Notes: a model not told the origin generated them from the letters alone. Positions 20,520 to 49,555 are shown, counted from the stretch's first letter. The stretch is DNA of 64,000 nucleotides from Desulfovibrio sp. (GCF_018379785.1 NZ_JAGZUV010000011.1:17788-81787), one strand, 5' to 3'. Program-made: numbers and translations.

Positions 20520-20552
20520 ACAGCCCGCAGAATTTCAGACAAGGAGGGACCA

Positions 20553-28379: not shown

Positions 28380-28562
28380 CTAGGCTCAGCCCTCATTAAA
28401 ACGCCGTCCGCGAAAAACTGAATTTTTTCGGGCAGCAAGGCGCAAAGGAGAAACCGGGCGAAGCTGTATTAAATATACCGCGAGGTCAATTTCTTTTTTG
28501 CAACGCAGCTGCACGGAAAAGGCGGCTTTGCAGCAGGCACTTTTAATGAGGACTGAGCCTAG
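28380..28562. repeat. 183-bp segment bounded by 22-bp inverted repeats CTAGGCTCAGCCCTCATTAAAA / TTTTAATGAGGACTGAGCCTAG; same 18-bp terminus also at 913..930
   Basis: Direct reading; 21/22 complementarity; the CTAG of each copy supplies/abuts the stop codon of smpB (914..916) and of the GT2 gene (28559..28561). Confidence 0.65.
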
Positions 28563-29476
28563 AATCTGCGGATGGAGCGGGAGACATCCAGGCGGGATGC
28601 AATACGCCGCAGAATGCGCGTGACTCCTTCCTCGCGCGCCGCCAACGCCATACGCGCATTCAGGCGCAAGGCGGCGGGCAGCAGCAGAAAGGCCAGCGCG
28701 CCCCATTGCCTTCGCCGGGCCAGTTCGCGAGCGAACAGACGGCGGAAGCCGCGCCCCATGCGGCGGAATTCCTCAAGGTAGCTGAAGAGTTCCACCTTGT
28801 GGTGCCAGCTTTTGGGGTGCAACCGCCAGCGGGTGAGTTTTTCCGGCACAAAAGCAAAGGGCGCGAGCGCGGCGAGCTGGGCCCAGACCCACCAGTCCAG
28901 CCAGCGCGGCACGGGCGTTTGCAGGGAGACGCGGCACAGCAGGCCGGTTCTGGCCATGGCGCAGGAAAAGGTGGGAATTTTGTTTTCCAGCAGAAAGGGG
29001 CGCACATCACAGTGCGCCGGGGCAAGCCGGGCATGCCAGCGCATGACGCGCGGCACATAGCCCTCAAACCAAGCGGTATCGGCTCCTGGCATGACAAAGG
29101 GCGCAATGTCGTTGCAGACCACGCCCGCGCCGTTCTTTTCCGCCGTTACCAGGCGTCGTTCCAGACAAAGAGGATGCCAGAGGTCGTCGGCCTCCAGAAA
29201 GGCCGTCCAACGGCCCCTTGCCTCGGCCAGGGCCAGAGCCAGGGCGGCGGGCAGGCCGTGATTCCTGCCGTCCGCATGGGTCAGCACGCGCACTCTGGAG
29301 TCGCGGGCGGCAAAGCTCCGGGCCACGGCCAAGGATTGATCCGTGGAGCCGTCCTCCACCAGCAGCAGCTCGAAATCCGCCATGCTCTGGCCCAGCGCGC
29401 CGCGCAGCGCTCCCGGCAGATAGCGGGCGTAGTTGTAGCTGGGCATGATGACCGTGACAGCGGGTGCGGGAAGCAT
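28559..29476 (-). CDS. family-2 glycosyltransferase (copy 1 of an inverted duplicated pair)
   Basis: MLPAPAVTVIMPSYNYARYLPGALRGALGQSMADFELLLVEDGSTDQS... GT2 DxD-type N-terminus; ~90% nt identity to 54036..54950. Confidence 0.85.
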   Translation of the reverse strand: MLPAPAVTVIMPSYNYARYLPGALRGALGQSMADFELLLVEDGSTDQSLAVARSFAARDSRVRVLTHADGRNHGLPAALALALAEARGRWTAFLEADDLWHPLCLERRLVTAEKNGAGVVCNDIAPFVMPGADTAWFEGYVPRVMRWHARLAPAHCDVRPFLLENKIPTFSCAMARTGLLCRVSLQTPVPRWLDWWVWAQLAALAPFAFVPEKLTRWRLHPKSWHHKVELFSYLEEFRRMGRGFRRLFARELARRRQWGALAFLLLPAALRLNARMALAAREEGVTRILRRIASRLDVSRSIRRF

Positions 29477-29512: not shown

Positions 29513-30259
29513 TCAGGCTTTGCGGGCGCCGACGCGCGCCGGATTTGGTGCCGGACAAGACGGATCGTCCAGCAGGGCTTGCAGATGCCGCATGCTCCGC
29601 CAGTGGGCAAAGAGTATTTCCAGCAGGCCGTTTCGGGCCCAGCGGGACAGAGTGGCGTCGGGCAGGGCCATGACCTTGTCCCGTCCCGCCACACGCAGGC
29701 CGCTCACAGCGCGTTCTTTTCCGTCGGCGCGGATAGTGACGCTCTGCTCCGCCAGCACGCCGCTCAACCCCAGTTCGGCCAGGGCCTGTTCGTTGTCCCT
29801 GTGGCGCTGATGCTGGTTGCCCAGCGTGGCTGTGATGCGCCGCAAAAATTCCGAGGGTTCGCCGTCCTCGCCATAGAGCGGCAGGCCGTCCTTCCGGCGG
29901 AAGTGCGGGGCATCCTCGTCCACGGCCAGAACAACTCCCGGCAATTTCTCCTGTTCGGGGGAAGGCGCGGCAATCAGCGAAAAAGGATGGTTAGCCGCGT
30001 ACAGAGGCAGATAAGGAGCGGTCCAGCGGCCCCGGGCGTCCACGAATATATTTTTTCCGCCCAGGCCCAGCAGGGCATAGGGAATGGCTGACCCCGCGGC
30101 AGGAAAGGCTATGGCGAAGCAGCGGGACGCCTCCACGGCTTCAAAGCTCAGAAGGGGTATGCTGTTCATGGCCGAGGTGAAGGAATAGTCCTCCAGGGTG
30201 CCGAAGGTCAGGGCCGCATGCCTGGTCTTGCTGAGAGGAACGATGCGCGGCTGGGACAT
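29513..30259 (-). CDS. SapC-family protein (start at ATG 30259 within ORF 29513..30397)
   Basis: MSQPRIVPLSKTRHAALTFGTLEDYSFTSAMNSIPLLSFEAVEASRCFAIAF... matches the SapC pattern found next to type I secreted S-layer genes. Confidence 0.6.
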   Translation of the reverse strand: MSQPRIVPLSKTRHAALTFGTLEDYSFTSAMNSIPLLSFEAVEASRCFAIAFPAAGSAIPYALLGLGGKNIFVDARGRWTAPYLPLYAANHPFSLIAAPSPEQEKLPGVVLAVDEDAPHFRRKDGLPLYGEDGEPSEFLRRITATLGNQHQRHRDNEQALAELGLSGVLAEQSVTIRADGKERAVSGLRVAGRDKVMALPDATLSRWARNGLLEILFAHWRSMRHLQALLDDPSCPAPNPARVGARKA

Positions 30260-30417: not shown

Positions 30418-33400
30418 TTAGGCGGCGATGATATCGCCGAGGGCGATGGAATTGTCCTCGCCGGTGCTGAGGGTGCCGAGCAGATTTACAGTGTCGCCGG
30501 CGTCAATCGTGCCGTCGGCCGAGGTGACCGAGAACACCCAGTAATTGCCGTCATCTGCGGCGGCGTCGGCGTTCTGGACAACCACGATGTTCTTGCCGGC
30601 GGTGAGGCCTGTAATGCCGTCAATACCGTAATGGGCATTCGTGGCGTCAATGACCTTGGCGGTGTCGAGCACTTTGCCGTCCAGTCCAAGGCCGGTGGCG
30701 TCGATTTTGTCGATGCCGGTCTGGAAGCCCAGGACGGTGTCGTCGTCGAACGCGCCGTTCACCACCAGGGTGTCGAAAGCGGTGTGGGACGAATTCACGT
30801 TCAGGGCGATGACGTCGTCGCCGGCAGTCAGATCAACAGTGTTCATGCTGGTGGTGCCGAGATCGGTACCGGCGACGTCAGCGGGAGTGCCCTTCACGAG
30901 GACGGTGTCGTCGCTGATATCTCCGCCCGCGGTGGCGCCGGTGATGGTGAAGGTATAGGTCCCGTCCGCGTTCTTCGCCCCGGCAACCGTCAGGCCGGTG
31001 TGGTCAGCCACCAATTCGGTCTGCATGGCGGTGGCCATGGCAGTTTCGTCGGCACCGCGCTCGAAAGTATAGGCTTTGCCGTTGTAAACGACCGTATAGT
31101 CGTCGGTAGCGGCTCCGGCACCAAAGTCCAGAGCAGCGGTGAGCGCCTGAACTTCAGGAGTGCCGCCAGTCCCCTGGGTCTGGATATCCAGCGCGCTGTC
31201 GACAGCCTCCACGCCGTTGACGGCCAGGTCGGAATCATTATTGCCGTTGGCATAAACGCCGTTAGCGCCGATCGTCACATTCGTGCCGGCGAAGTCCACA
31301 CTCAGATCAGTGGCAGCAAATGCACCGTCAACCAGGGATTCCACCAGCAGGGAGTGCCCCATGCCGTCCTTGGCCACCAGCAGAGCGCCCAAGGTCGGAT
31401 CCTCATTGATTGCCGCGATGATGGCGTGATTGACGTCATCCACGCTGATGCCTTTCTGGCCAGCGGCCACATCCAGCGTCACCTCGGAGGTGATGCCGTT
31501 GAATGTCACCGTAACGGTCACGGTGCCGGCAGTGGCCGAGGTGATTTCAAGGCCCACGGCATTAGTGGCCACGACTTCGTTCTGCAGGGGCTGCGCGCCG
31601 TCGGGACCGGCCTTTATGAAGGTTTCGGCCGTATTGTTGGCGCCGAACACGAAGACCGCATTCTGGTCGTGGGCGTTCTGCCCCACATAGACCTTGTCGT
31701 CGCCCACGCCGTCATTCACTTTCACCGCGCCGTTGCCCCAGAACCACACTTCGTCATTGCCCGCGCCCAGGTCGATGGACACATTGTTCAGGGCGATCTG
31801 GTTCAGTAGACGGCTGCCGGTAAGATTCTCAAAGGAGAAGTTCACCAGGTCGTTGCCGGCGTTGGTCTGGATGTCCAGCTTGAAGTCGCGGTCGGCGGCG
31901 ATGCCGGCGTTGACCTTCATGTTCAGGGTGTCGTCGTTTGTACCCAGATAGTAGCGGAAATCGCCGCTGGGAGCGTAGTTGCTGTACATGGTGTTCAGGC
32001 CGTCCACATCCGCCATATACTTGTCCAACGCTGTATCCGTGAGCTGCGCACCGATGTTCACCTTGCCGTTCATCTCGCTGGCATCGAAGACCTTGACGTT
32101 GGTCAGACCGTCGGTGCTCAGCAAGCGGGGCACGTTCATCCAGTGGGCGAGTTCCGCGTCGGTGGCGGGATTGACGCCCGTGTTGCCCAGAGCTTCAACA
32201 TCAAGCGGCGTGCCGATGAAAAGATTGCCGTCGTCGCCGGCGCCGTTCACCGCGCCGTTCTTCACCGTGACCAGACGCAGGGTGTCGTTGGTGGAGGACA
32301 GGCTGGACAGCCACGACCCCTTGTCCACGACCACGTCGAAGCGCTCCACGCCGCCGCGGCCCGCATTGGAGCCAATGACCAGATGGCCCGCTTCGCTGCC
32401 TAAGATGGAATCATCGGGCAGGCAGGGGCTGGCGTCATCCCACTGCACGCGGCCCACGTTGTCCAGCTCCACATTGGTCTGGATCAGGGGGCAGGTCGTC
32501 TGCGCGTCGTCGCTGAACGTGGCCGAAGTGGAGTTGGTCGGCGGAAGGCCGTTGGAGGCGATCCAGTTGCCGCCTTCCAGGGCCCCCTGATCGGAGGAGA
32601 TCACGATCTTGTTGCCCTGGACGGTTTCGCCTTTGTGATCGCCGATGCCCACCACGGCCGTGAACACATCGCCCTTGGTGACGGTCAGGCCCAGGCCGGA
32701 CAGTTCGGAATCGGCATCAATGGCGGCCTGCATCTGGGCGACCAGTTCGTCATAGGAGGGGGAATCGTCGGTGGTATGGTTGTACGCGCCGAAGTTCAGC
32801 GTGTACTCCTTGCCGTTGAGCGAGAACTTGAAGCCAGTGTATGGGTTGTCATACAGAGGATCAGCATGGCCGCCGTCAACCACGGGCAAAGCGCCCACCG
32901 TGTCGATGAGCTGCGCATACAGCGTGCCCGTGGTCTGGCTGTCCTCGCGCGCGAGGTGTTGCGCATCAAAGTAAACCGAGAAATCCACGCCGCCGGGATC
33001 AGTATTGGAGAAGCGGACCGTGGTTTCCGTGGATTTGTGGCGCACGTCCTCAACACTAAGGGAGCTGCGGCTGTTGTCCGAACCGAGGGTCAGCATCTGG
33101 CCATCGGCCAGGTGCACATTTTCGGCGTCGAAGTAGGCGTTGGTCAGATTGCCGCCCGTGCCGCCGGTAGCCTGCTGAACGTGGAAGAGAATGGTTTCCA
33201 CATTTTGGATTTCAGGCGAAATGACGTCGTCCGTCCTGCCGCTCTCGATGTCGGCATACAGGGTGTCGTGGCCGGCCTGGCCGTCAATGTAGTCACGGTC
33301 GTCAAGGGTTCCGACTTTGGCGTTGATATAGTCGTTGCCCGCAGTGCCCTGAATTTCGTCGTCGCCGGTGGTGAGCTGATAGGTGTTGCCGAGGGTGGCG

Positions 33401-33939
33401 GCGTTCACGGAGAGGCCCTCGGCCTTGCCGTACATTTCATAATGCTGGATGGGGTCAAGCCCGGCGTCCTGGAAGTCCTTCACCAGCATTTCCATGGTGT
33501 AGGCAGGGTCGCCCTTCTGCATCTCGGCCAACTTGGCATTCATGTACGCGGCAGTGTCAAAGCTCTGTGAAGGATTGTGGAAAACCCCCTTGGAGGCAAA
33601 GCTTTCGGCCCAGTACTGGTGGAAGTGCTCATACGGGCTCATGCCCGCCTGGTTCATGGCCACAAGCATGGAATTGGCATTCTGGCCGGTGATGTTGGTC
33701 CGTTCGTAGTAGTCCGCAGCCTTGTTGTACAGGTATTCGGAGCTGTCGAACCAGGAGCTGGCGCTCACGCCTTCAGCATTGCCGTAGTCCAGAAAATGCC
33801 TGTACAGGCCTTCCGCGTCCGTTGAATAGCCGGCGGCATCGAAAGCGGCTTTCAACTGCAGACTATCCCAACCTTCGCCCATCATCTGGAGCTTATTATT
33901 GAAATAGACATCTTTCTCAAACCAAGAAGGTACAGCCAT
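30418..33939 (-). CDS. giant secreted surface protein, paralog 1 (putative S-layer/array protein; T1SS substrate candidate)
   Basis: 1173 aa from MAVPSWFEKDVYFNNK...; three ~55-aa N-terminal repeats (WF..Y..NK..AG.S.YEHF..YG..EG), long Gly/Asp/Thr-rich beta-repeat body, no N-terminal signal peptide, C-terminus ...GFQTGIDKIDATGLGLDG... resembling T1SS C-terminal target domains; GGAGG RBS. Confidence 0.7.
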   Translation of the reverse strand: MAVPSWFEKDVYFNNKLQMMGEGWDSLQLKAAFDAAGYSTDAEGLYRHFLDYGNAEGVSASSWFDSSEYLYNKAADYYERTNITGQNANSMLVAMNQAGMSPYEHFHQYWAESFASKGVFHNPSQSFDTAAYMNAKLAEMQKGDPAYTMEMLVKDFQDAGLDPIQHYEMYGKAEGLSVNAATLGNTYQLTTGDDEIQGTAGNDYINAKVGTLDDRDYIDGQAGHDTLYADIESGRTDDVISPEIQNVETILFHVQQATGGTGGNLTNAYFDAENVHLADGQMLTLGSDNSRSSLSVEDVRHKSTETTVRFSNTDPGGVDFSVYFDAQHLAREDSQTTGTLYAQLIDTVGALPVVDGGHADPLYDNPYTGFKFSLNGKEYTLNFGAYNHTTDDSPSYDELVAQMQAAIDADSELSGLGLTVTKGDVFTAVVGIGDHKGETVQGNKIVISSDQGALEGGNWIASNGLPPTNSTSATFSDDAQTTCPLIQTNVELDNVGRVQWDDASPCLPDDSILGSEAGHLVIGSNAGRGGVERFDVVVDKGSWLSSLSSTNDTLRLVTVKNGAVNGAGDDGNLFIGTPLDVEALGNTGVNPATDAELAHWMNVPRLLSTDGLTNVKVFDASEMNGKVNIGAQLTDTALDKYMADVDGLNTMYSNYAPSGDFRYYLGTNDDTLNMKVNAGIAADRDFKLDIQTNAGNDLVNFSFENLTGSRLLNQIALNNVSIDLGAGNDEVWFWGNGAVKVNDGVGDDKVYVGQNAHDQNAVFVFGANNTAETFIKAGPDGAQPLQNEVVATNAVGLEITSATAGTVTVTVTFNGITSEVTLDVAAGQKGISVDDVNHAIIAAINEDPTLGALLVAKDGMGHSLLVESLVDGAFAATDLSVDFAGTNVTIGANGVYANGNNDSDLAVNGVEAVDSALDIQTQGTGGTPEVQALTAALDFGAGAATDDYTVVYNGKAYTFERGADETAMATAMQTELVADHTGLTVAGAKNADGTYTFTITGATAGGDISDDTVLVKGTPADVAGTDLGTTSMNTVDLTAGDDVIALNVNSSHTAFDTLVVNGAFDDDTVLGFQTGIDKIDATGLGLDGKVLDTAKVIDATNAHYGIDGITGLTAGKNIVVVQNADAAADDGNYWVFSVTSADGTIDAGDTVNLLGTLSTGEDNSIALGDIIAA

Positions 33940-34045
33940 GGATTCCTCCAAAATAAAGTTTTACTGTTTGCACCAGTTGCTGACGTGCTCCATAAAAAGA
34001 GGTCCCTTCACGCACCCTTCTCCACGCCTTCCAATCACGTGAAAA

Positions 34046-34075
34046 TGTAACAATAGGGTACACCCTATTGTTACA
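34046..34075. other. 30-bp palindromic candidate recombinase crossover site A (TGTAACAATAGGG-TACA-CCCTATTGTTACA)
   Basis: 13-bp perfect inverted arms around an asymmetric 4-bp centre; 108 bp upstream of giant paralog 1 start and ~200 bp upstream of the serine recombinase gene. Confidence 0.55.
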
Positions 34076-34279
34076 AAATTAGGAATTCTATTTTATAATC
34101 AAATTATATACTATTTTTTCATTTTTTATGAAAAAACAAATAGAGTTAAAAGAAATTATACATAATACAAAAGATGAGATATACAAATGAAAAAGACAGC
34201 CTACTTCACATTGCATATCAAATGAGATGACAGAGCATCTCGTTATATCCTCATGGAATAACGCATGCAGGAGAAAACT

Positions 34280-34924
34280 ATGGATATAGGCTACATCAGG
34301 GTCAGCTCATATGATCAACATACAGACAGACAACTGGATGGAGTCCATCTTGAAAAGATATATACGGATATGATCAGCGGCAAAGACACGAACAGACCTG
34401 AGTTGCAGAAGTGCCTTACGGCGTTGCAGCGTGGTGATACACTACATGTCCACAGCATCGACAGATTGACGAGAAATTTGCAGGATCTGCTTCTGCTGCT
34501 TTCGGAAATGGCCGAAAGGGGCGTCACAGTGCGGTTTCACAAAGAAAAACTGACTTTTTCAAGCGACAGCTCACCCTTTCAAAAACTGCACCTACAGATT
34601 ATCGGCGCTGTGGCTGAATTCGAACGGGCTTTCATCCGTGAGCGCCAGCGGGAAGGCATTGCCATTGCCAAGGCGAAGGGTAAATATAAAGGGCGCAAGC
34701 GTGCGCTTTCAGCGGAGCAACTGGAAGAAATTTCCCGGCGCATTGCAAGAGAGTCCGTGAGCCGCATCGCGGAGGAATATGGGGTGTCCCGCCAGACCAT
34801 CTACAGGTCGCTGCGCCAGAACGAGGAAGGCGGCATGCGCTCCGTCCGGGATTCCCGGAAAGGCTGTACGGGCCTGCGCCATGAAGCCCCGTGGCATGAT
34901 CGGGAGCGACGAACCCATACCTGA
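34280..34924 (+). CDS. serine recombinase (resolvase/DNA-invertase family)
   Basis: MDIGYIRVSSYDQHTDRQLD...GDTLHVHSIDRLTRNLQDLL... catalytic Ser motif and C-terminal HTH (GVSRQTIYR); AGGAG RBS; gene GC clearly lower than surroundings. Confidence 0.85.
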   Translation: MDIGYIRVSSYDQHTDRQLDGVHLEKIYTDMISGKDTNRPELQKCLTALQRGDTLHVHSIDRLTRNLQDLLLLLSEMAERGVTVRFHKEKLTFSSDSSPFQKLHLQIIGAVAEFERAFIRERQREGIAIAKAKGKYKGRKRALSAEQLEEISRRIARESVSRIAEEYGVSRQTIYRSLRQNEEGGMRSVRDSRKGCTGLRHEAPWHDRERRTHT

Positions 34925-35313: not shown

Positions 35314-35342
35314 TGGACAAAGCCTGCCCCTGAAATTATAGT
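35314..35342 (+). promoter_or_regulatory. candidate sigma70 promoter for the T1SS operon (TGGACA-17-TATAGT)
   Basis: tggaca 35314, 17-bp spacer, tatagt 35337; ~125 bp upstream of ABC gene start. Confidence 0.45.
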
Positions 35343-35466: not shown

Positions 35467-37242
35467 ATGCAAGATTTTCTGCGCTCGTGCCGGTATTTCT
35501 TCGGATATGCCTTCTTCTTCAGCATGTTCGTCAATATTCTGCAGCTGACATTTTCCATCTACATGCTGCAGGTTTATGACAAAGTGCTGACCAGCTACAA
35601 TCTTTCGACACTGACGGTCATCACCATCGCCGCCGTCATCGCGCTGGTGGTCATGGCTTTGCTGGAGTGGATCCGTTCGCGCCTGCTGGTACGGGCCGGC
35701 ATTGAGTTCGACCACATGCTCAGCCGCGACGTGCTGAAGCTGAATCTGCAAAACGCGGGAGCGCCTGCCGGCAAACCTGCCGAGCAGAACGGCAATTTGC
35801 GCGACGTGCAGAGCCTGCGCAATTTTCTGGGCGGCAACGCGGTATTCGCGTTTTTCGACGTGCCCTGGATGCCCATCTATTTCGCCCTGATTTTCATCCT
35901 GCATCCTTCCCTGGGCATGGTGGCTGTGGGAGGCGGCCTGCTGGTCCTGATTCTGGGCGTCCTCACCGAGCGGCTGACCCGCAAGCGTCTGGAAGCGGCA
36001 AGCCATCTCAATGCCCATTCCTTCAATCTTACCGGCGCGGCCATGCGCAACGCCAGCATCGTGCGCTCCATGGGCATGATCGGCAATGTCACGGCGCGCT
36101 GGGGCAAGGTCAACGACCTGATCATCCGACTCCAGACGCGGGCCAGCCGCAGCGCGGGCCTGATCCACGCGGTCAGCAAATCCCTGCGGGTCGGCCTGCA
36201 AGTGCTGATCTACGCCGTGGGCGCGTATCTGACGGTCATGCACGAATCCACGGCCGGGGTCATGATCGCCGCGTCCATCGTCATGGGCCGCGCGCTCGCG
36301 CCCATTGATCAGGCCATGGGCAGCTACAAGCAGTCCCTGGAAGCCCGGGGAGCCTATGGCCGCCTGAAGACCCTGCTCGACGCCCCGCGCCCCCTCCCGG
36401 CCATGGACCTGCCGGAACCGCAGGGCGAGCTGACCGCCGAAAATCTCTATTTCGCCGCCGGGGGACGGCCCATCCTCAAGGGGATATCCTTCCGCATGCC
36501 CGCCGGGCAGTCCCTGGCCATTATCGGCCCCAGCGCTGCGGGCAAGTCCACCCTCTGCAAACTGCTGTTGAACATCTGGGAGCCCACCAGCGGCAAAGTG
36601 CGCATCGACCGCGCGGATATGGCTTCCTGGGATTCGGAAAAGCTCGGCCCTTTTCTCGGCTATCTGCCGCAGGATGTGGAACTGTTTTCCGGCAGCGTGG
36701 CGGAAAATATCGCCCGGCTCGGCGAGGTGGATTCCGCCAGGGTCATCAAGGCGGCCCGGATGGCGGGCGTGCATGAAATGATTCTGGCCCTGCCCAAAGG
36801 CTACGACACCCAGATTGGCGACCAGGGCGCGGCCCTTTCCGGCGGACAGCGCCAGCGCATCGGTCTGGCGCGCGCCCTGTACGGCGATCCGCGCGTCATC
36901 GTGCTGGACGAGCCCAACTCCAATCTGGACGAAGAGGGCGAGGCCTCGCTGGCGCAGGCCGTGCTGCATCTCAAGCAACAGCACACCACTCTGATTCTGG
37001 TAACCCACAAGCCCAATATCCTTTCCATTGTGGACAACATCATGATGGTGCAGGACGGGCAGATCGCCCTGTGCGGGGCGCGCCAGGAAGTGCTGGCCAA
37101 GCTGGCGGAGCTCCAGAAACAGCAGCGCGAGGAAGCGGCCAGAGCCAGACTGTTGCGGGAGGCGCTGGAAAGGCGCAAGGCCGTCTCGCCGGAAAATCCC
37201 GATGAACCGCAAAGCGGCGACGGGGAGCCTGAACATGCGTAA
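35467..37242 (+). CDS. type I secretion system ABC transporter (permease/ATPase, HlyB/PrtD family, no C39 peptidase domain)
   Basis: 591 aa, 6 TM then Walker A GPSAAGKST, signature LSGGQRQRIGLARAL, Walker B VIVLDEPNSNLD. Confidence 0.9.
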   Translation: MQDFLRSCRYFFGYAFFFSMFVNILQLTFSIYMLQVYDKVLTSYNLSTLTVITIAAVIALVVMALLEWIRSRLLVRAGIEFDHMLSRDVLKLNLQNAGAPAGKPAEQNGNLRDVQSLRNFLGGNAVFAFFDVPWMPIYFALIFILHPSLGMVAVGGGLLVLILGVLTERLTRKRLEAASHLNAHSFNLTGAAMRNASIVRSMGMIGNVTARWGKVNDLIIRLQTRASRSAGLIHAVSKSLRVGLQVLIYAVGAYLTVMHESTAGVMIAASIVMGRALAPIDQAMGSYKQSLEARGAYGRLKTLLDAPRPLPAMDLPEPQGELTAENLYFAAGGRPILKGISFRMPAGQSLAIIGPSAAGKSTLCKLLLNIWEPTSGKVRIDRADMASWDSEKLGPFLGYLPQDVELFSGSVAENIARLGEVDSARVIKAARMAGVHEMILALPKGYDTQIGDQGAALSGGQRQRIGLARALYGDPRVIVLDEPNSNLDEEGEASLAQAVLHLKQQHTTLILVTHKPNILSIVDNIMMVQDGQIALCGARQEVLAKLAELQKQQREEAARARLLREALERRKAVSPENPDEPQSGDGEPEHA

Positions 37243-38620
37243 GCAACTGAGCAGGGCCCTGGCCGTCATTGAAACCAGCGTCATCAAGCCCATCGTCAGC
37301 GCCGCGGAAAAACGCCAGGCCGCCAAGGGCGAAAATGTGGAAGACCCCCGCCGCATCATCCGCCAGGGACTTCTGGTGGTGGGTCTTTTCTTCGGGGCGC
37401 TGGGAATCTGGTCGGTTTTCGGCCACATCAGCGGGGCCGTGGTGGCGCCGGGCAAAATCAAGATCGAAACGGAACGCAAAACCGTACAGCATCTTGAAGG
37501 CGGCATTGTGGACGCCATTCTGGTGCGCGAAGGCGAGGAAGTGGCGGCGGGCCAGCCTCTCATCCTGTTGGAATCGGTGCAGATCGACGCCAGCGCCAGC
37601 ATGCTGCAAAAGCAGCTTGTGGCCCAGCTGGCCGCCGGAATCCGGTTGGCCGCCGAAAAGGATCTCAAAGAGGAACTGCACTGGCCCGACGATCTGCGCC
37701 GCATGGCCGAAGAGCGCCACAGCCTCGATGTGCTGGACAACGAGGCCAAAATTTTCGCCGCCCGGCGGGAGGCTCTCAACGCGCAGGTTTCCCTGCTGAA
37801 TACCCAGCTTGCACAGCTGGACGCCCAGGTGGCCGGTTTTGACGATCAGGTCAAGGCCGAGCAGGCCATTATCGGCACGCTTAATGAAGAACTGCGCGCC
37901 AAGCGGCAGCTCTACAATGAGCGCTATCTGGAAAAATCGCAGATTCTGGAGCTGGAACGCACCCTGGCCAGCCATCAGGGCAACCGGGGACGCCTCAAAC
38001 AGTCCATCGCCGAGGCCAAACAGCGGGCCGCCGAGCTGCATCTGCGCATCGAAGACGTGAAAGTGCGCTTTGTGGAAGAAGCCACCAGCTCCCTCGGCAA
38101 GCTTGAAAACGACATCATCCAGACCCGCGAGCGCCTCCGCCCGCTCAAAGACGCAAAAAGGCGCCTGCAGATCGTGGCTCCGGTGGGCGGGCGCGTGGTG
38201 GATCTCAAGGTGCATTCCAAGGGCGGAGTCGTGCGTCCGGGCGAGCCGCTCATGGACATCGTGCCCCACGACAATCCCCTGATTGTGGAAACCCATGTGC
38301 CGGTCAACAAGATCACGGAAGTCCACATCGGACAGGATGCCCTGGTGCAGCTCGACGCCTTTGACACGCGCCTTACCCCGCACATGCCCGCCAAAGTCAC
38401 CTACATCTCGGCTGACCGTCTGGAAGAGCGCACCGGCGCGGGCGTGATGCCCTATTACCTTTGTTATGTGGAAATCGATCCCAGAGCCCTGAAAGACGCC
38501 AAGCTCTATCTTTCGCCGGGCATGCCCGCCACGGTTTTCATCACCACCCAACAGCGCACGGTCCTTTATTATATGATGGAGCCGCTGCTCAAAAACTGGG
38601 ACAGAGCGTTGAGGGAGTGA
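37235..38620 (+). CDS. type I secretion membrane fusion protein (HlyD family)
   Basis: MRKQLSRALAVIE..., single N-terminal TM, long coiled-coil, C-terminal beta domain; start overlaps ABC stop. Confidence 0.85.
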   Translation: MRKQLSRALAVIETSVIKPIVSAAEKRQAAKGENVEDPRRIIRQGLLVVGLFFGALGIWSVFGHISGAVVAPGKIKIETERKTVQHLEGGIVDAILVREGEEVAAGQPLILLESVQIDASASMLQKQLVAQLAAGIRLAAEKDLKEELHWPDDLRRMAEERHSLDVLDNEAKIFAARREALNAQVSLLNTQLAQLDAQVAGFDDQVKAEQAIIGTLNEELRAKRQLYNERYLEKSQILELERTLASHQGNRGRLKQSIAEAKQRAAELHLRIEDVKVRFVEEATSSLGKLENDIIQTRERLRPLKDAKRRLQIVAPVGGRVVDLKVHSKGGVVRPGEPLMDIVPHDNPLIVETHVPVNKITEVHIGQDALVQLDAFDTRLTPHMPAKVTYISADRLEERTGAGVMPYYLCYVEIDPRALKDAKLYLSPGMPATVFITTQQRTVLYYMMEPLLKNWDRALRE

Positions 38621-38622
38621 GC

Positions 38623-39558
38623 ATGCGCCGGATTCTTGCAGTTTTCCTCCTGTGGGCGGCAACGGTTATTCCCCAGACCTCACAGGCCGCCGTTGCCGCC
38701 CTTTCCGGCCATGCCCCGTTGCGGGCGGCCAGCCTGTATACGGGCGGGGAGCACGCCGGCGGCGGGGAACAGCGGGTGGAACTCTATCTGCTGGACGGCA
38801 ACTTTTTCGTCCTGCGCCAGATTGCCGCGCCCAGAGGCAAAAAAGCCGTTACGCGGGACATGACCGGCTTCTGGCGGCAGGTGGACGACGGATTTCCGCA
38901 CAGCCTGGCGCTGAAAAAATCCCCGTTCCGCAAGCCGTCCTTCAGCGTCATGGGCAGGCTGGATCGTATTGCGGGCCGCGCGGCACTGACCGACAGCGCC
39001 ACGGGGCGGGTGTTCGCGCCCGCTGAAGGCGAGGCGCTGGCGGCTCTGCCCGGGAAGGATTCCCTCTTTGTGGATGCGGTGATCCTGCCCGCAAAAAACG
39101 GCTGTGCCGTCCAGCGCATCCGGAGTTTTTCCACCCGTTTTCCGTCACAGGCCGGGTCCGCCCCGACAGACGGGGACTTTGCCGCCAGAGTGGCGGGCGA
39201 AGTCTGGCTTCTACCTTCCCTGCCGGGTCTGCCCGCCGCCTCCTGCGTTTTCAGCGAGCGGGGCAAAGGGCAGGGCGCACTGGAAGTGACCGGGCCGGGC
39301 CTGCGGCTGACGGCGGACTATGTCCTGCGCGGGCCGGGCCTGACCTTCTCCGTCAGGAAGGAGGACGCCCGCATGCTGGAAGCCTGCGGGGCGGAGGTTC
39401 TGCCGCGCATGCTGGCCTCCGTGCGTTCATGGTCGCTGGAAGGCGGGGCGCTGACGCTCACCTCCGCCGACGGACAGAGCTTTCTGCTGGAAAAAGCCGC
39501 GCCGGATCGCCGGGCCGGAAGCGGACGCGCCGCCGCGCCCAAAGGATATAAGAGATGA
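38623..39558 (+). CDS. hypothetical secreted/periplasmic protein encoded inside the T1SS operon
   Basis: 311 aa, signal peptide MRRILAVFLLWAATVIPQTSQAA; translationally coupled to MFP (3-nt gap) and TolC (4-nt overlap). Confidence 0.6.
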   Translation: MRRILAVFLLWAATVIPQTSQAAVAALSGHAPLRAASLYTGGEHAGGGEQRVELYLLDGNFFVLRQIAAPRGKKAVTRDMTGFWRQVDDGFPHSLALKKSPFRKPSFSVMGRLDRIAGRAALTDSATGRVFAPAEGEALAALPGKDSLFVDAVILPAKNGCAVQRIRSFSTRFPSQAGSAPTDGDFAARVAGEVWLLPSLPGLPAASCVFSERGKGQGALEVTGPGLRLTADYVLRGPGLTFSVRKEDARMLEACGAEVLPRMLASVRSWSLEGGALTLTSADGQSFLLEKAAPDRRAGSGRAAAPKGYKR

Positions 39559-40892
39559 ACACAGGTTGCCGTCTTTTTTGGTTCCGTCTTCTTCTGCTGC
39601 TCTGCCTCGCGCTGCCGCTCCGGGAACCGGATGCTCCGCGCGCCGCGGAAATCTTCACCATGGAGCAGGCCGTGGCCCGTGCCATGCAGGCCAATCCCGG
39701 CGTGGAGGCGAAAATGCTGCTGCTGGAACAGGCCCGGCTGAACGTGGGCGTGGCCCAGAGTTATTTCTGGCCGCGCGTTTCCCTGGTGGGCACCAGCAGC
39801 CGCGTCCAGAACTACGAGGAAGTGCAGACCTACAACAGCGACAACCTCACCAGCGACAACTGGTCCAAAGGTCTGCGGGCCTCGCTGTCCCTGTTCGCCG
39901 GTTTCGCCCATCTGAACAATCTGCAGAAATCCCGCATCGCGGTGGAGGTGGAAAAAGCCCGCCACCGGCAGGCCCGTCTGGAACTGGGCAGCAATGTGCA
40001 GCTTCAGTTTCTGCAACTGCTCAAATGCCGCGAGGATCTCAAAAGCGCGGAAGAAGCCGTGGCCCGCATTGAAACCCAGCTCAAGGCCGCAGAGGCCTTC
40101 GTCAAAGTGGGCATGGCCCCCTATGTCAATGTGCTCCAGAACCGAACCGAGCTTTCCAGCGCCCGGCAGCAGGTCATCCGCGTCAACAACGACATCCGCA
40201 ACGCGGAAGTGCAGCTCAACAGATATCTGGGATTTTCTCCGGACCGCCCCGTGCGCTATGCCGGCAATCTCAAAAATTTCTCCAGCACCGTCGGATACAC
40301 GGAAGAGGAAGCCGTCGCAGCGGCCATACGGCAGCGGCCTGACCTGACCATGGCCCGGAAGTCGGTGGAGGTGGCCTACAAGGACATGCACATCGCCATG
40401 GGACAGTACCTGCCCCGCGTGGACGCCACCTACGACAATATGAGCTCCAGCAAGGAATACGACGACAAACGCTATCAGGGCTACACCCGCAACTACTGGG
40501 CTGCAGGGCTGAATTTCTCCTGGGAAATCTTTTCCGGCGGCGAAACAACCTTTTCCACCCTGGCTGACCGCAAAAAGGCCCAATCCCTGCAAAAAGACTA
40601 CGAAGACGCCATGTCCGGCGCGCGCGCCGACGTGATCCGCTCACTGCTGGACATCAAGGCCGCCAGGGAACTTATCGCTGCCTCCCGCCAAGGCATGGAC
40701 GCAGCCCGCGAAAGCTACGCCATGGCCAACAAACGCTACATGACCAATACCGGCACCATCACCGAACTGCTGGACGCCCAGCTCAAGCTGACCCAGGCCG
40801 AAAACGACGCCAGCCGCGCCCTGACCGAATACCACAGCGCGCGTGTCCGCTTCTTTTACCATATCGGGCGCGAGAACCCAGGACTGAGGTAA
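39555..40892 (+). CDS. TolC-family outer-membrane efflux protein (T1SS outer membrane component)
   Basis: 445 aa, signal peptide, two-repeat TolC architecture (..SYFWPRVSLVGTSS.. / ..QYLPRVDATYD..). Confidence 0.85.
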   Translation: MNTGCRLFWFRLLLLLCLALPLREPDAPRAAEIFTMEQAVARAMQANPGVEAKMLLLEQARLNVGVAQSYFWPRVSLVGTSSRVQNYEEVQTYNSDNLTSDNWSKGLRASLSLFAGFAHLNNLQKSRIAVEVEKARHRQARLELGSNVQLQFLQLLKCREDLKSAEEAVARIETQLKAAEAFVKVGMAPYVNVLQNRTELSSARQQVIRVNNDIRNAEVQLNRYLGFSPDRPVRYAGNLKNFSSTVGYTEEEAVAAAIRQRPDLTMARKSVEVAYKDMHIAMGQYLPRVDATYDNMSSSKEYDDKRYQGYTRNYWAAGLNFSWEIFSGGETTFSTLADRKKAQSLQKDYEDAMSGARADVIRSLLDIKAARELIAASRQGMDAARESYAMANKRYMTNTGTITELLDAQLKLTQAENDASRALTEYHSARVRFFYHIGRENPGLR

Positions 40893-40902: not shown

Positions 40903-43407
40903 ATGGCAAAAAAGCTGCTGCGTAAAAAATTGCGGAATGCCTTTGCCTACCGCGAGGATCACCATGCGCAACTGGCTCGCTTTCTCCAGCGCGGGCATCT
41001 GCCGGCGCGTCTGGCCAACTTCGCTTTCAATGCGATCTGCAAGACGGTCCGGCAATTCCGCCACGTCATCCGGTGGCTGGAAAAAGTCGGGGGGAAGTGT
41101 CCTGCAAAACCCCGCGCGGCCACCTGCGCCCTCATCGCGGAAATGGGCATCCCGCAGTGCGTACATTACCGCGTGACCGGGCGGGTCGCGCAGTTGCGCC
41201 GCCTGGGCTGGAATCCAGTCGTGCGCGACTGGCGCGATCAAAAAGGTGCCAGAGAGGCCCTGCAACTGGCGGACTGCGCACTCTTCTACCGTATCCCCAT
41301 GGCGGAACACGGTCCCGATCTTTATGCCGAAGCCAGACGTCTTGGTCTTCCCATCCTCTACGATATTGACGATCTCATTTTCCACAAGGCGGAGTTGTCC
41401 GCGCATATCTCCCGCCTGCGCCTGCGGGACGAACACGCCGCCGCCATGCTGAACGCCGCGGACGCCTATCTTCGGGCCATGGAAGCCTCCGACGCTCTGC
41501 TGGTGAGCACGCCCGCGTTGGGCGCATACGCCGCCGCCACGGGACGTCCCCATTTCGTGGTGCATAACGCGGTGTCGGATGATCTGGTCCATCTGACGCA
41601 GACGCTTCCCGCAAAAAAAGCAGGCAATGAGATTGTGCGCGTCTTTTACGGCAGCGGTTCCGACACGCACGACGCGGATTTCGGCCTCATTGCCGAAGCC
41701 CTGTGCCAGGCCATGCAAAAGGATTCGCGGCTGCATCTGTATATCCACGGGCATCTTGAACTGCCCGCCGAGCTGTTCTGTCTTGCCGGACGCGTCCACA
41801 GAGTTCCCTTTCTTGACAAGGCATTCTATTTCCGACTCTGTGCCGACTATGATATGGCGCTGGCGCCGTTGCTGCGAGACGCCTTCAACGACGCCAAAAG
41901 TAACATCAAATACCAGGAAGCCTCGTTGTTCGGCATTCCGTCCATCGTCTCTCCGGCGGCCGAATTCACGGATGCAGTCACCGAGGGCTGGGACGGCTTC
42001 ATCGCCCGCACACCGGAAGAATGGCGGGATAAAATCCTTCTGCTGGCGGCTTGTCCGGCGTTACGCGAACAGATGGGGCAAAAAGCCCGACAAAACGTGC
42101 TGGCCCGCTATGTCAGCGCTGTTGTGGCCCACAACGACCTGCTGCCGGCGCTTCCGCCCATGGCTTCCCCGCACCGGGAACGCGTTCTGCTCGTCAGCGT
42201 CATGTTCGGCCGCCGCAGCATGGGCGGAGCGGCCCTGCTCGTGATGGAAACGGCGCTGGAATTACAACAGCACGGTTTTGAAATATGGGTTTTCAGCACG
42301 GAGTATGCCAGCGACGCGCCGCATGGCGCTCTTGTGCGCCGTGACTGGCGGGGAATCAAGGTATTCTCCGTCAACTTCATGCCGGGTGAGATCGGGCAGG
42401 AAACCCGGTCCGAGGCGCTTTTCCGCGACGTCCTGCGGACAGCCCAGCCCGGCCTGGTACATTTTCATTGCATCGAAGGTCTGGGGACCGGGCTGCCGCA
42501 GGAGTGCATCCGGCAATCCATCCCCTATGCGATCACCATGCATGACGCATGGTGGGTTTGCCCCCGCCAGTTCATGCTGACCCCCGCAGGGGACTATTGC
42601 GGACAAAGCGTGGTTGATCCGCAAATCTGCCATATCCGTTGCGGGCTGGAGCAGGAAGAACTCTGGCGGCGCGCGGTCCACATGCGGGAAGCCGTGGCCG
42701 GAGCCCAGGCCGTTTTCACCCCCTCCGATTTCTACACCTCCTTCATAAGCCGCAACTTCCCCCGCCACTGCGCTGTACTGACCAATCGCAACGGCATAAA
42801 CCGGCCGAAATCGCACCGTCCCGCCAGGATGCCGGGCCCGTTACGCCTGGGCTATCTCGGCGGCAAGGCGCGCTGGAAGGGATATTTTTTCCTGGCGGAG
42901 GCCCTGCGCGGGATCGCGCGCGACGACTACGAAGTTCTGCTGGTAGATCTGGGCACCGTCTTCGGCACGGGCGATATGACCGGGGACGAGGACAGGGCGC
43001 TGTGGAAGGGTCTGCATGCGAGCATCCTGCCCTTCGTGCGGCACGAGGATATCGATTCCCTGTACTGGCAGATGGATGTGCTGCTTTTTCCCTCCTTGTG
43101 GAATGAGAGTTTCGGCCTGGCCGTCCGCGAGGCCATCGCGCGCGGCGTCTTTGTGCTGTCTTCCGACTGCGGCGGCCCGGGCGAGGCCATCGTGCACGGT
43201 GAAAACGGCCTGCTGTTTCCCAAGGGCGACTTGGCGGCGTTCAGAAACCGGCTGCACTACGTTCTCGACGAGCAGGAAACATTCAAAAACTACCGCGCGT
43301 CCGACACCGGGGATCTACGTTCCCTCGAGTCCCAGGCGGAAGAGCTGGCCGACGCATACAGGCGAATATTACAGGTCCGGACGTATTTTCGTCCAACAGG
43401 GATTTGA
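40903..43407 (+). CDS. large two-domain glycosyltransferase (C-terminal GT4/GT1-type domain)
   Basis: 834 aa; C-terminal ...LLFPSLWNESFGLAVREAIARGVFVLSSDCGGPGEAIVHGENGLLF... is the E-x7-E retaining GT4 motif. Confidence 0.75.
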   Translation: MAKKLLRKKLRNAFAYREDHHAQLARFLQRGHLPARLANFAFNAICKTVRQFRHVIRWLEKVGGKCPAKPRAATCALIAEMGIPQCVHYRVTGRVAQLRRLGWNPVVRDWRDQKGAREALQLADCALFYRIPMAEHGPDLYAEARRLGLPILYDIDDLIFHKAELSAHISRLRLRDEHAAAMLNAADAYLRAMEASDALLVSTPALGAYAAATGRPHFVVHNAVSDDLVHLTQTLPAKKAGNEIVRVFYGSGSDTHDADFGLIAEALCQAMQKDSRLHLYIHGHLELPAELFCLAGRVHRVPFLDKAFYFRLCADYDMALAPLLRDAFNDAKSNIKYQEASLFGIPSIVSPAAEFTDAVTEGWDGFIARTPEEWRDKILLLAACPALREQMGQKARQNVLARYVSAVVAHNDLLPALPPMASPHRERVLLVSVMFGRRSMGGAALLVMETALELQQHGFEIWVFSTEYASDAPHGALVRRDWRGIKVFSVNFMPGEIGQETRSEALFRDVLRTAQPGLVHFHCIEGLGTGLPQECIRQSIPYAITMHDAWWVCPRQFMLTPAGDYCGQSVVDPQICHIRCGLEQEELWRRAVHMREAVAGAQAVFTPSDFYTSFISRNFPRHCAVLTNRNGINRPKSHRPARMPGPLRLGYLGGKARWKGYFFLAEALRGIARDDYEVLLVDLGTVFGTGDMTGDEDRALWKGLHASILPFVRHEDIDSLYWQMDVLLFPSLWNESFGLAVREAIARGVFVLSSDCGGPGEAIVHGENGLLFPKGDLAAFRNRLHYVLDEQETFKNYRASDTGDLRSLESQAEELADAYRRILQVRTYFRPTGI

Positions 43408-43420
43408 GGCAAACAAAATC

Positions 43421-46399: not shown

Positions 46400-46456
46400 G
46401 CCGGAAACGCGGCATGGCACAACGGCCAGGCGGATAAAAATCTGGAGAGTACCCCC

Positions 46457-47278
46457 TTGTTCCGACTTCTCGACATCCTTGCCGCACCACGCCTGCTGTG
46501 GTGTCACAAAAGCTTATTCCGGCAACTGCTTGTCAGAAACATCAGCACCCGCTATCGCGGCTCAGTACTGGGGCTGATCTGGAGTTTCGCCTATCCTCTG
46601 ATGATGCTGGCGGTCTACACCTTTGTTTTCGGCATCATCTTCAAGGCGCGCTGGGGCGTTGAAACGCTGGACGAAAACAGGGCAGCCTTTCCTCTGATCA
46701 TGTTCTGCGGCCTTGCAGTGTTCAATCTCTTTTCCGAAAGCGTCAATGCCAGCGGCAGTCTTATTGTGAATAATGTCAGCTTCGTCAAAAAGGTCATCTT
46801 TCCTCTGGAGCTGTTGCCCATATGCACAGTGGCCACAGCATTTTTCTTCGGCGCTGCCTGGTTCAGCCTGCTTCTACTGGGAGCCTGCATTTTTCTGCAA
46901 TCCCTGTCATGGACGATGCTGCTTCTCCCTCTGACCCTTGTGCCTCTGCTGCTGTTCACCACAGGGGCGGTATTCGTCATCGCGGCCTTTGGAGCGTATC
47001 TGCGGGATGTGCCCCAGCTTGTGGGCGTGGCGACGCAGATTCTCTTTTTCATGACGCCCATTTTTTACCCGGTTTCTCTGGTACCCGAGCGCCTGCGCTG
47101 GCTGCTGAATCTGAACCCTTTGACGCCCGTGGTGGAGGAAACCCGCAAGCTCTTTCTCTACGGGCAGGAGCCCGACTATATGGTCTGTTTGTGGCTGTTT
47201 CTCTTTTCTCTAGCGGTATTCCAGACCGGCTTTGTCTGTTTCAGCAAAATGAAGAAAGGATTCGCGGATGTGCTCTGA
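46457..47278 (+). CDS. wzm: ABC-2 type polysaccharide exporter permease (Wzm/KpsM-like)
   Basis: 273 aa, ...FRQLLVRNISTRYRGSVLGLIWSFAYPLMML... 6 TM. Confidence 0.85.
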   Translation: MFRLLDILAAPRLLWCHKSLFRQLLVRNISTRYRGSVLGLIWSFAYPLMMLAVYTFVFGIIFKARWGVETLDENRAAFPLIMFCGLAVFNLFSESVNASGSLIVNNVSFVKKVIFPLELLPICTVATAFFFGAAWFSLLLLGACIFLQSLSWTMLLLPLTLVPLLLFTTGAVFVIAAFGAYLRDVPQLVGVATQILFFMTPIFYPVSLVPERLRWLLNLNPLTPVVEETRKLFLYGQEPDYMVCLWLFLFSLAVFQTGFVCFSKMKKGFADVL

Positions 47279-48635
47279 TGCCGAAGCCGTCATTCGCGTG
47301 AGCGACATTGCCAAATTCTTCGAGATATACTCCAAGCCGTCGTATCGTCTCTGGCAGATGATATTCCGGGGCAGACGGCGTTTTTATGAGCCGTTCTGGG
47401 CGCTGCGGGACATTTCCTTCACTGTGGGGCGCGGAGAGTGCGTGGGAGTTATCGGCCGCAACGGCGCGGGCAAAAGCACGCTGCTCCAGATCATTACCGG
47501 CACGCTCGCCGCTTCATCGGGATGCGTCGACGTGAAAGGCCGTGTGGCCGCCCTCCTGGAACTGGGCAGCGGCTTCAACCCCGAATTCACGGGCCGCGAG
47601 AACGTCTACCTCAATGCCTCCATCCTCGGCCTGACGCGGGAAGAAACAGACTCCCGCTACGACGACATCGTGGCCTTTGCGGACATCGGCGACTTCATCG
47701 ACCAGCCGGTCAAAAGCTACTCCAGCGGCATGGTGGTGCGCCTGGCCTTTGCCGTGGTGGCCCATGTGGACGCTGACGTGCTGATCATCGACGAGGCCCT
47801 GTCTGTAGGCGATGCCTTTTTCACGCAGAAATGCATGCGCTTCCTGCGCCGCTTCATTGCCGAGCGCACCGCGCTTTTCGTCAGCCATGACACTGCCGCC
47901 GTAAACAGCCTGTGCAACAGGGCCATCCTCATGGAACACGGGCGGATAAAGCAGATGGGCAGACCCAAGGACGTGACGGAAACCTATCTGAAAGATATGT
48001 ATGAAGCGCACCAAGGCTCCAGTGCCCCCGTCGTCGAAACATCAGGGGCGACTCCGGCGGAGAAAGACGCGGAGGACAGGGCGCGCGCCTTCACGCCCGA
48101 GGATTTCCGCGACATGCGCGCGGACCTCATCAATGCCAGCAACTTGCGCAATGACATTCAGGTCTTCGTCTTCAACGAACGCAGCGCCGACTTTGGCAAA
48201 AAGGGCGTCACCATCACCGGAGCCGCCCTCCTGGACGGCAGGGGACGCCCACTGAACTGGGTGGTCGGCGGCGAACCCGTGTCTCTGCAAATCACCGTGC
48301 GGGCACACAAGGACATCTTCAGCCCCATTATCGGTTTTTTTCTCAAAAATCGTCTCGGGCAACATATCTTCGGGGACAATACCTTTCTGGCCTACCGGGA
48401 AAAACCCGTGTTGCTGCGCCGGGGGCAAAGCGCTCGTGCGCTTTTTTCCTTCGTCATGCCCATCCTCGAAACCGGAGACTACAGCTTTTCCATTGCCGTG
48501 GCAGAAGGCACGCAAGTAGAACATATCCAGCATGACTGGAAGCACGACGCCCTGGTTCTGAAATCGGTCACCACCAGTTGTCATACGGGCATGGTGGGCA
48601 TCCCCATGCAGTGCATCAGCCTCAACGTCATCTAG
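47268..48635 (+). CDS. wzt: polysaccharide ABC transporter ATP-binding protein (Wzt-like) with C-terminal carbohydrate-binding extension
   Basis: 455 aa, Walker A GRNGAGKST, signature YSSGMVVRLAFA, ~190-aa C-terminal extra domain. Confidence 0.85.
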   Translation: MCSDAEAVIRVSDIAKFFEIYSKPSYRLWQMIFRGRRRFYEPFWALRDISFTVGRGECVGVIGRNGAGKSTLLQIITGTLAASSGCVDVKGRVAALLELGSGFNPEFTGRENVYLNASILGLTREETDSRYDDIVAFADIGDFIDQPVKSYSSGMVVRLAFAVVAHVDADVLIIDEALSVGDAFFTQKCMRFLRRFIAERTALFVSHDTAAVNSLCNRAILMEHGRIKQMGRPKDVTETYLKDMYEAHQGSSAPVVETSGATPAEKDAEDRARAFTPEDFRDMRADLINASNLRNDIQVFVFNERSADFGKKGVTITGAALLDGRGRPLNWVVGGEPVSLQITVRAHKDIFSPIIGFFLKNRLGQHIFGDNTFLAYREKPVLLRRGQSARALFSFVMPILETGDYSFSIAVAEGTQVEHIQHDWKHDALVLKSVTTSCHTGMVGIPMQCISLNVI

Positions 48636-48643
48636 GAGCCGTC

Positions 48644-49516: not shown

Positions 49517-49555
49517 ATCTGAAACGCCCCGGTGGGGACAATGAGGAGAACATGC

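Follow-up and report, generated by a model that had tools for sequence, protein, structure and literature searches.

A repeat module shared by two surface-protein genes

We analysed a stretch of 64,000 nucleotides of DNA (hereafter the window) from a human-gut Desulfovibrio sp., whose ClpP is identical to that of D. fairfieldensis. The window contains two large genes, P1 and P2, whose products share an N-terminal repeat module. P1 lies on the minus strand (30418..33939) and is a single open reading frame (ORF) of 1173 amino acids counted from an ATG; its product starts MAVPSWFEKDVYFNNK and corresponds to MBS6828977.1 / WP_291433954.1 (Desulfovibrio sp.), annotated as 'hypothetical protein'. 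P2 lies on the plus strand (50519..53923) and encodes 1134 amino acids starting MAVEIPTWFEEKNYLNNK (MBS6828989.1). An initial annotation of this DNA had described both products as giant proteins with a common N-terminal repeat, which it placed at 30418-33939. With about 1150 amino acids these proteins are large rather than giant, and the interval is that of the whole P1 gene. The modules themselves occupy 33397..33939 on the minus strand in P1 (residues 1-181) and 50519..51067 on the plus strand in P2 (residues 1-183). The shared repeat itself was borne out: BLASTP aligned residues 3-252 of P1 with residues 5-275 of P2 at 34% identity (E 1.8e-40), three units are present in each protein, and all six example peptides quoted in that annotation were found in P1 and P2.

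The units cover residues 5-62, 62-124 and 125-181 of P1 (33754-33927, 33568-33756 and 33397-33567, respectively) and residues 7-67, 67-126 and 125-183 of P2 (50537-50719, 50717-50896 and 50891-51067). The threefold repetition proposed earlier stands, with units that measure 57-64 amino acids instead of the estimated 55 or so. When units were compared by HHalign, the probability reached 99.8% with E values of 1e-27 to 1e-30, whereas shuffled units scored at most 7.4 bits. Separate profiles were also made for unit 1, unit 2 and unit 3 from 118 family members, and each of them detected the other two kinds of unit with a median score of ~60 bits. The residues F, Y, K, A-G, H and Y are invariant across the six copies of P1 and P2. 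More generally, the unit follows the motif WFDxxxYLxxKLAQL...WT...AFxxAGLxxxxHYxxYGxxEGxxP, in which Y, K, H, G and E are nearly invariant; over 354 units, conservation amounts to 97% for F3, 100% for Y8, 99% for K12, 93% for G38, 99% for H44, 90% for G49 and 94% for E52. An AlphaFold2 model of residues 1-190 of P2, built from a 36-sequence alignment, predicts a compact, all-helical module with three helices per unit (predicted local distance difference test score 96.6, predicted template modelling score 0.89).

Beyond the module, the two proteins had been said to have different bodies. This holds for the larger part of the bodies, where the two remaining BLASTP alignments, located further along, are short and at chance level (E 6.8). 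The similarity nevertheless persists for ~70-90 residues after the repeats, into a stretch of the form 'LTTGxDxIxGTAxDD ... IDGxxGxDTL'. In P1 this post-module stretch, alignable with P2, corresponds to residues 182-252 (33184..33396, minus strand) and reads 'QLTTGDDEIQGTAGNDY...IDGQAGHDTLYA'. The two modules, which are 34-39% identical, diverged long ago as paralogues, and separate orthologues of each exist elsewhere.

We then compared the P2 orthologues of five other gut metagenome strains with the protein of the window. Identity is 97-99% over residues 1-185 and 69-98% over residues 281-1000. The paralogues P1 and P2 show the same pattern when compared with each other, the module being kept and the bodies unrelated. 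A constant N-terminus combined with a variable body is as expected when an inward-facing attachment domain is linked to an exposed region that diversifying selection acts upon. The last ~130 residues of P2 (53519-53923, residues ~1001-1134) are only 26-36% identical in three of the five strains, those with rearranged loci (L018, L026 and L028), and 95% identical in L019 and L021. The divergent end could be a swapped C-terminal/secretion region or a local misalignment.

Size and architecture of the repeat family

The distribution of the repeat was assessed by an exhaustive HMMER search with a 59-position profile of the unit, the counts being representatives of 50% identity clusters. This search returned 4557 representatives at E<=1e-3, 1694 at E<=1e-10 and 460 at E<=1e-30, compared with 2 matches when the same profile was used in a word-index protein search. 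Among the best 150 members, 128 possess exactly three units, 137 have a first unit starting within residues 1-15, and all 150 start with Met. The database search suggested by the initial annotation thus finds the repeat in homologues as well, which for the most part carry precisely three units at their very N-terminus. The relatives are spread over Alpha-, Beta- and Gammaproteobacteria and Desulfovibrionaceae, and the named hosts (Desulfovibrio, Candidatus Mailhella, Alcaligenaceae, Pollutimonas, a gammaproteobacterial metagenome-assembled genome (MAG) and Methylobacterium) are all diderms bearing lipopolysaccharide (LPS). One module homologue, 50% identical, was located on a 4.3-kb contig of a 'Bacillota bacterium' MAG (L003, JAEWTL010000117.1), which was also matched by one 60-nucleotide probe of the window taken from a crossover-site flank; this contig probably comes from a member of the Desulfovibrionaceae and was binned into that MAG by mistake.

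The bodies that follow the module are mutually unrelated. Their length ranges from 165 to 2655 amino acids, many of the shortest ones being fragments from short contigs, and the sole recurrent Pfam domain is RTX HemolysinCabind, present in 13 of 65 members (E<=0.001). The C-termini show a recurring '...L.GV...' ending, which we take to resemble the C-terminus of RsaA, the surface-layer (S-layer) protein of Caulobacter crescentus. In the databases, members are labelled 'hypothetical protein', with one source calling P2 a 'beta strand repeat-containing protein'.

The repeat had been left without a family name in the initial annotation, and the comparisons agree with this. Pfam-A and NCBIfam gave no match for the module of P1 and P2, and no consistent Pfam match was obtained with 36 modules at E<=10. 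The PDB yielded no relative by sequence, in single-sequence as well as profile searches, and none by fold with Foldseek (best E 3.6). It is therefore very probable that the repeat family is unnamed and without a solved structure. Several weak matches were judged to be due to chance: DUF3869 and YbaB in the P1 body; TRPV3 chains, LdcB chains, Tudor chains and DUF3494; and PASTA, which came up in 6 of the 36 modules, the query's own match being under the curated cut-off.

A search with the module profile likewise brings up a shorter unit of ~38 amino acids, FDxxxYLxxNPDVxxAGxNPxxHYxxxGxxEGRxP, as in the Methylobacterium crusticola protein P0235 (E 1.7e-36) and in P0240, P0245 and P0246; these proteins have no precomputed Pfam domain. 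The short and long units have the F, Y, A-G, H-Y, G, E-G and P positions in common. They differ in that N-P-D-V replaces K-L-A-Q-L and the inserted helix, and copy number and position vary for the short unit. Since the profile detects it, the long unit appears to be one branch of a larger unnamed repeat superfamily. The short variant makes up part of the 4557 matches.

The gene island and its three-site recombinase cassette

The DNA upstream of P1 and that upstream of P2 are unrelated save for one 33-nucleotide element, found in inverted orientation. Three copies of the corresponding site were delimited in the window. S1 (34046-34075), ~120 nucleotides upstream of P1, is a perfect 14+2+14 palindrome, TGTAACAATAGGGT-AC-ACCCTATTGTTACA, with the core GGGTACACC at 34056-34064. 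S2 (50356-50388, CAATAAAGTGTACCCTATTGTTACATTTTTACG, core 50362-50370) lies ~147 nucleotides upstream of P2 and is inverted relative to S1. S3 (35008-35031, CATAGAGGTGTACCCCATTAAAAC, core 35014-35022) lies between a serine recombinase gene and the first gene of a type I secretion system (T1SS). S2 and S3 have the GGTACAC/GTGTACC core of S1 with the central dinucleotide reversed. The recombinase (34265..34924, plus strand) combines a Resolvase domain (PF00239, E 2e-36) with an HTH_7 domain (PF02796, E 8.9e-09). Together with an AT-rich patch ahead of it (34077-34264), it forms a cassette of ~0.96 kb with S1 and S3 at its ends. Mailhella possesses the same arrangement of site, recombinase and site, with the same core, and there it provides the only inverted repeat of at least 14 nucleotides in the 1.7-kb region.

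For the comparison of related contigs, we named the P1 side A, the recombinase cassette B, the segment with the T1SS and O-polysaccharide genes C, and the P2 side D. The window has the order A-B-C-D, and its A/B and B/C junctions are common to 18 related contigs. Two contigs (L001 and L018) display the order reverse complement of C, B, D, in which the cassette is placed between the start of C and P2, with hybrid sites S3/S2 and S3/S1. In two others (L026 and L028), P2 adjoins the start of B through a hybrid S2/S1 site. Every rearrangement break falls inside the GGTACAC core (7-9 nucleotides), yielding these hybrid sites, and three of the four arrangements predicted from inversions among S1, S2 and S3 were observed. 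In all of them the cassette has the beginning of the T1SS operon on one side and a coat gene, P1 or P2, on the other. With a high degree of confidence, the recombination at S1, S2 and S3 is conservative and site-specific. Homologous recombination between the 5' ends of P1 and P2 was rejected as the inversion mechanism, the DNA homology there being limited to the 33-nucleotide site.

The location of the cassette raises the possibility that it controls which coat gene is transcribed. A promoter carried by the cassette and directed outward may select P1 or P2. A trough in GC content surrounds the recombinase (0.51 over 34001-36000, versus ~0.61), and the AT-rich patch contains divergent sigma-70-like matches (34070-34099 on the plus strand and 34132-34103 on the minus strand). 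The patch at 34077-34264 is our best candidate for a movable promoter. When the upstream regions were read by eye for a sigma-54 promoter, the spacing did not fit. We consider the chances to be even that inversion switches expression between P1 and P2. Besides, a stem-loop with an 8-bp stem followed by a T-rich run (50474-50492), kept in L001, lies ~25 nucleotides ahead of the start codon of P2; it could be a structure of the 5' untranslated region, or could attenuate transcription that reads through from the O-polysaccharide operon.

P1, P2 and the cassette belong to a gene island bordered by tig/clpPX/lon on one side and, on the other, by an AIR-synthase-related gene followed by rplQ/rpoA/rpsD/secY. 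Its order is: family 2 glycosyltransferase (GT2, minus strand), SapC (minus), P1 (minus), S1, recombinase (plus), S3, T1SS, O-polysaccharide genes, S2, P2 (plus), GT2 (plus). The T1SS genes (35467..40892, plus strand) encode an ABC transporter with ABC_tran and ABC_membrane domains (35467-37242), a HlyD-type membrane-fusion protein (HlyD_3, 37202-38620) and a TolC-like outer-membrane protein (39555-40892, OEP E 3.5e-59), all on the plus strand. Between the last two lies a conserved plus-strand ORF of uncertain start (38461-39558), which has no Pfam match and may encode a fourth component of this T1SS. Its counterparts are called as 342-344 amino acids in related Desulfovibrio contigs, and near 38886-38891 the window is without ~100 nucleotides found in other strains. 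The SapC-family gene (29513..30259, minus strand; PF07277, E 1.3e-46) is directly downstream of P1, its start being placed according to the 248-amino-acid gene called in related contigs.

The O-polysaccharide cluster (40903..50110, plus strand) is of the ABC-transporter-dependent type. It comprises a GT4/GT1 glycosyltransferase gene (40903-43407), a gene for a protein with RgpF and HAD domains (43016-46399, start uncertain), Wzm (46457-47278), Wzt with a Wzt_C domain (47268-48635), a methyltransferase (48578-49516) and RmlC (49532-50110). One GT2 copy (28559..29476, minus strand) is the inverted duplicate of 54036-54950, and the other (54036..54950, plus strand) is directly downstream of P2. 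The two copies thus form a long inverted duplication bounding the whole island, 91% complementary over the 485 nucleotides scanned. The flank on the tig side is joined to GT2 and P2 in L026 and L028, a sign that another large inversion may have taken place there by homologous recombination between the inverted GT2 copies. Elsewhere in the window, four ORFs with good codon bias and no Pfam match at E<=1e-5 (9602-11161, minus strand; 17180-17836, 18589-19353 and 20390-21808, plus strand) sit among ffh, guaB, guaA, tatC, hisB and hisF.

The proximity of secretion genes is in keeping with the composition of P1 and P2. Both proteins have a calculated isoelectric point of 4.05, contain few cysteines (2 and 0, respectively), are rich in Ala, Gly, Thr and Asp, and carry scattered GGxGxD motifs, those of P2 being at residues 437, 457, 999 and 1026. 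A signal peptide was found in neither. The RTX HemolysinCabind domain (PF00353) scored 14.5 bits in P2, which is below the Pfam cut-off of 23, and P1 gave no Pfam match to it. Considering the lack of signal peptide, the acidity, the low cysteine content, the GGxGxD motifs, the adjacent ABC/HlyD/TolC genes and SapC, P1 and P2 look like T1SS substrates, as the initial annotation had also held, and we regard this assignment as highly probable. Both may be described as acidic secreted proteins of S-layer type, and they could form an S-layer.

Part of this gene association is found in other loci. SapC is the most faithful neighbour, since it lies within 10 kb of the module homologue in 6 of the 7 loci examined, which belong to several Proteobacteria. 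In Mailhella (L002) the homologue is near a recombinase and SapC; in Alcaligenaceae (L005), near OEP, Wzy_C and SapC. Among the metagenome contigs, SapC stands alone in L023, with ABC and HlyD in L024, and with OEP, Wzm, Wzt_C and RgpF/methyltransferase in L025. An alignment of five SapC homologues gave invariant residues that include E40, G65, N70, G77, W79, P85 and P92.

Proposed anchoring and exchange of the coat proteins

We then asked about the possible role of such an association between a conserved module, variable bodies and an inversion system. On balance, we favour a scenario in which P1 and P2 are alternative coats that share an attachment module and are exchanged by the invertase. 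Within this scenario, the N-terminal module seems somewhat likely to be a surface anchor, because of its N-terminal position, because it is conserved while the bodies diverge, and because O-polysaccharide and sap-like genes are its neighbours in several lineages. As for the ligand of this anchor, we tentatively put forward the O-polysaccharide of LPS.

The scenario would proceed as follows. The T1SS encoded between P1 and P2 would export either protein. The triple repeat would emerge last and then fold, and it would hold the protein non-covalently on the outer membrane, facing inward, by binding to the O-polysaccharide made by the adjoining Wzm/Wzt cluster. Each unit would contribute one copy of the conserved polar/aromatic residues, namely the invariant Tyr, Lys, His and Glu, and the divergent acidic GGxGxD bodies would constitute the exposed, variable coat. 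The Hin-like invertase, acting at S1, S3 and S2, would reshuffle the 16-kb segment in such a way that P1 or P2 ends beside the cassette. The bodies would be exchanged in this manner, with no change to the anchor, secretion system or glycan.

Several elements of this scenario are reminiscent of known systems. RsaA has the same succession of an N-terminal domain, an acidic body of the calcium-binding type and an uncleaved C-terminal secretion region. Presumably it also contains an 'LTTGTDxxTGTAxxD' stretch after its N-terminal domain, and a similar stretch follows the module here. The parallel with RsaA drawn in the initial annotation is an analogy in position and export; it does not extend to homology, since no PDB entry was found to resemble the module in sequence or in fold. 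The sap system of Campylobacter fetus, with its sapA/sapB homologues and sapCDEF, is similar in that a SapC-family gene and a three-gene T1SS are located beside surface-protein genes, which are several in number and have a conserved N-terminus and a divergent remainder. In C. fetus, oppositely oriented surface-protein genes reportedly flank an invertible segment with secretion genes (Dworkin and Blaser, 1996-97). To our knowledge, the N-terminal sequence of SapA is unrelated to this repeat. The present locus differs from sap in having two copies only, with N-termini that are 34-39% identical rather than near-identical, and in using a serine recombinase and three short sites instead of a RecA-dependent exchange between long homologous 5' segments. 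RsaA and C. fetus SapA are T1SS S-layer proteins anchored to LPS by their N-terminal domains (PMC6978808, PMC12175726, PMC4943207), the O-antigen being the part recognized in the case of RsaA (PMC6978808, PMC12175726). Moreover, LPS/glycosylation genes are adjacent to the sap locus in C. fetus and are thought to govern Sap binding (PMC4943207).

The comparison can be extended to the surface-layer homology (SLH) domains of Gram-positive and certain other bacteria, which likewise consist of three tandem units of ~55-60 amino acids, largely helical, at one end of surface proteins. SLH domains are non-covalent glycan anchors that bind a secondary cell-wall polymer, whereas the hosts of the present module are LPS-bearing diderms. 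No homology was detected: there was no SLH match in the 36 modules at E<=10 or in P1 and P2 under permissive settings, and no structural match. On the recombination side, the system resembles Hin, Gin, Cin and Min by its small recombinase with Resolvase and HTH_7 domains and its short, imperfectly palindromic sites with an asymmetric central dinucleotide; the inverted sites with a common core, at which recombinant junctions are observed, are further likenesses to Hin and Gin. Multiple-inversion systems of the Min/p15B type possess more than two sites, as is the case here. The differences from Hin, Gin, Cin and Min reside in the segment that is moved, which spans 16 kb and includes the genes for a secretion system and for O-polysaccharide, and in the genes that are exchanged, which encode S-layer-like proteins and not flagellin or tail fibres.

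Other roles of the module have to be considered. It could be a lattice or oligomerisation domain that mediates contacts among coat subunits or with an outer-membrane protein, attachment being achieved by other means. A compact, highly conserved helical domain, as predicted here, would suit such a function, its threefold internal repetition could build symmetric interfaces, and the modules of P1 and P2, being only 34-39% identical, could each be adapted to a separate lattice. However, it is hard to reconcile a shared lattice domain with unrelated bodies of 165-2655 amino acids, the recurrent linkage to O-polysaccharide genes would be left unexplained, and RsaA, which among the LPS-anchored S-layer proteins exported by a T1SS is the only one solved, has a C-terminal lattice part and an N-terminal anchor (PMC12175726). 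We therefore hold a lattice function to be unlikely. Alternatively, the module could act as a T1SS retention plug in the manner of LapA: the C-terminus would exit first, and a fast-folding N-terminus would stall in the TolC-like channel without any glycan being involved. Such a role, which accords with the extreme N-terminal position and predicted compactness of the module and with the use of Lap-like retained adhesins by Desulfovibrio vulgaris (PMC13090378), appears rather improbable. Indeed, the known retention modules combine beta-strands and a helix with a [T/A/P]AAG cleavage site for LapG (PMC13090378), whereas our model is all-helical and neither P1 nor P2 contains this motif; no LapG- or LapD-type match was found among the ~45 ORFs of the window scanned against Pfam, and the internal or C-terminal copies present in some members cannot act as N-terminal plugs. 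Membership of the Lap-type retention modules was rejected on these grounds.

The linkage to SapC in 6 of 7 loci might also be read as the sign of an intracellular or secretion role without any function at the surface, in which the module would dock onto SapC or the ABC transporter or serve as an intramolecular chaperone. However, a conserved module joined to variable bodies fits a structural role at the surface equally well or better, SapA of C. fetus, which is likewise accompanied by SapC, is not known to share this N-terminus, and the recognition signals of T1SS substrates are C-terminal, so that we give this alternative a low probability. Finally, P1 and P2 are of low complexity overall, and the similarity might be attributed to chance or to the composition of proteins rich in Ala and Gly. 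This is extremely improbable in view of the E value of the P1/P2 alignment, of the HHalign scores as compared with those of shuffled units, and of the thousands of database relatives that display the same invariant residues.

Returning to the anchor and the switchable coats, several observations weigh against this scenario or parts of it. An identity of 34-39% between the two modules is low for proteins that would bind the same glycan, though the signature residues are kept. Some of the best 150 members have 4-8 units, or units that are internal or C-terminal. No T1SS features were noted in the small proteins that contain the ~38-residue variant, and the unit may consequently be a general-purpose module. 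In one locus of a Desulfovibrio sp. (L004), T1SS, SapC and O-antigen genes are all absent up to 10 kb from the homologue. As regards the switch, the promoter predictions are weak and inconsistent, and a sigma-70 scan of Mailhella gave nothing consistent. Furthermore, the rearranged contigs are those of other strains and are ~91-97% identical to the window over aligned segments, and what they demonstrate is that strains differ by recombination at the sites, not that switching takes place within one population. Lastly, a search of the literature brought up no S-layer reported for gut Desulfovibrio.

A surface-protein system of the sap/RsaA type with T1SS export is known already. What is new here is a putative anchor module without a named or solved relative, together with a probable switch that relies on site-specific instead of homologous recombination. 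RsaA is among the first, and still very few, Gram-negative S-layers for which there is a full structural model of LPS attachment (2025 review, PMC12175726), and the module described here is a candidate, and one that is easy to test, for another way of anchoring that would be much more widespread. We speculate, at a level of confidence that falls short of probable, that the triple repeat is a widespread and hitherto unrecognised LPS/O-polysaccharide-binding fold, a Gram-negative counterpart of SLH for T1SS proteins, which in gut Desulfovibrionaceae would anchor the products of a three-site coat-switching shufflon of antigenically different S-layer proteins. The module also provides a handle for the annotation of surface proteins that are now labelled 'hypothetical'. 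The surface biology of the pathobiont group to which this common human-gut sulfate reducer belongs is almost unknown, and the reshuffling of two coat genes bears on the way in which such a bacterium may evade immunity and phages.

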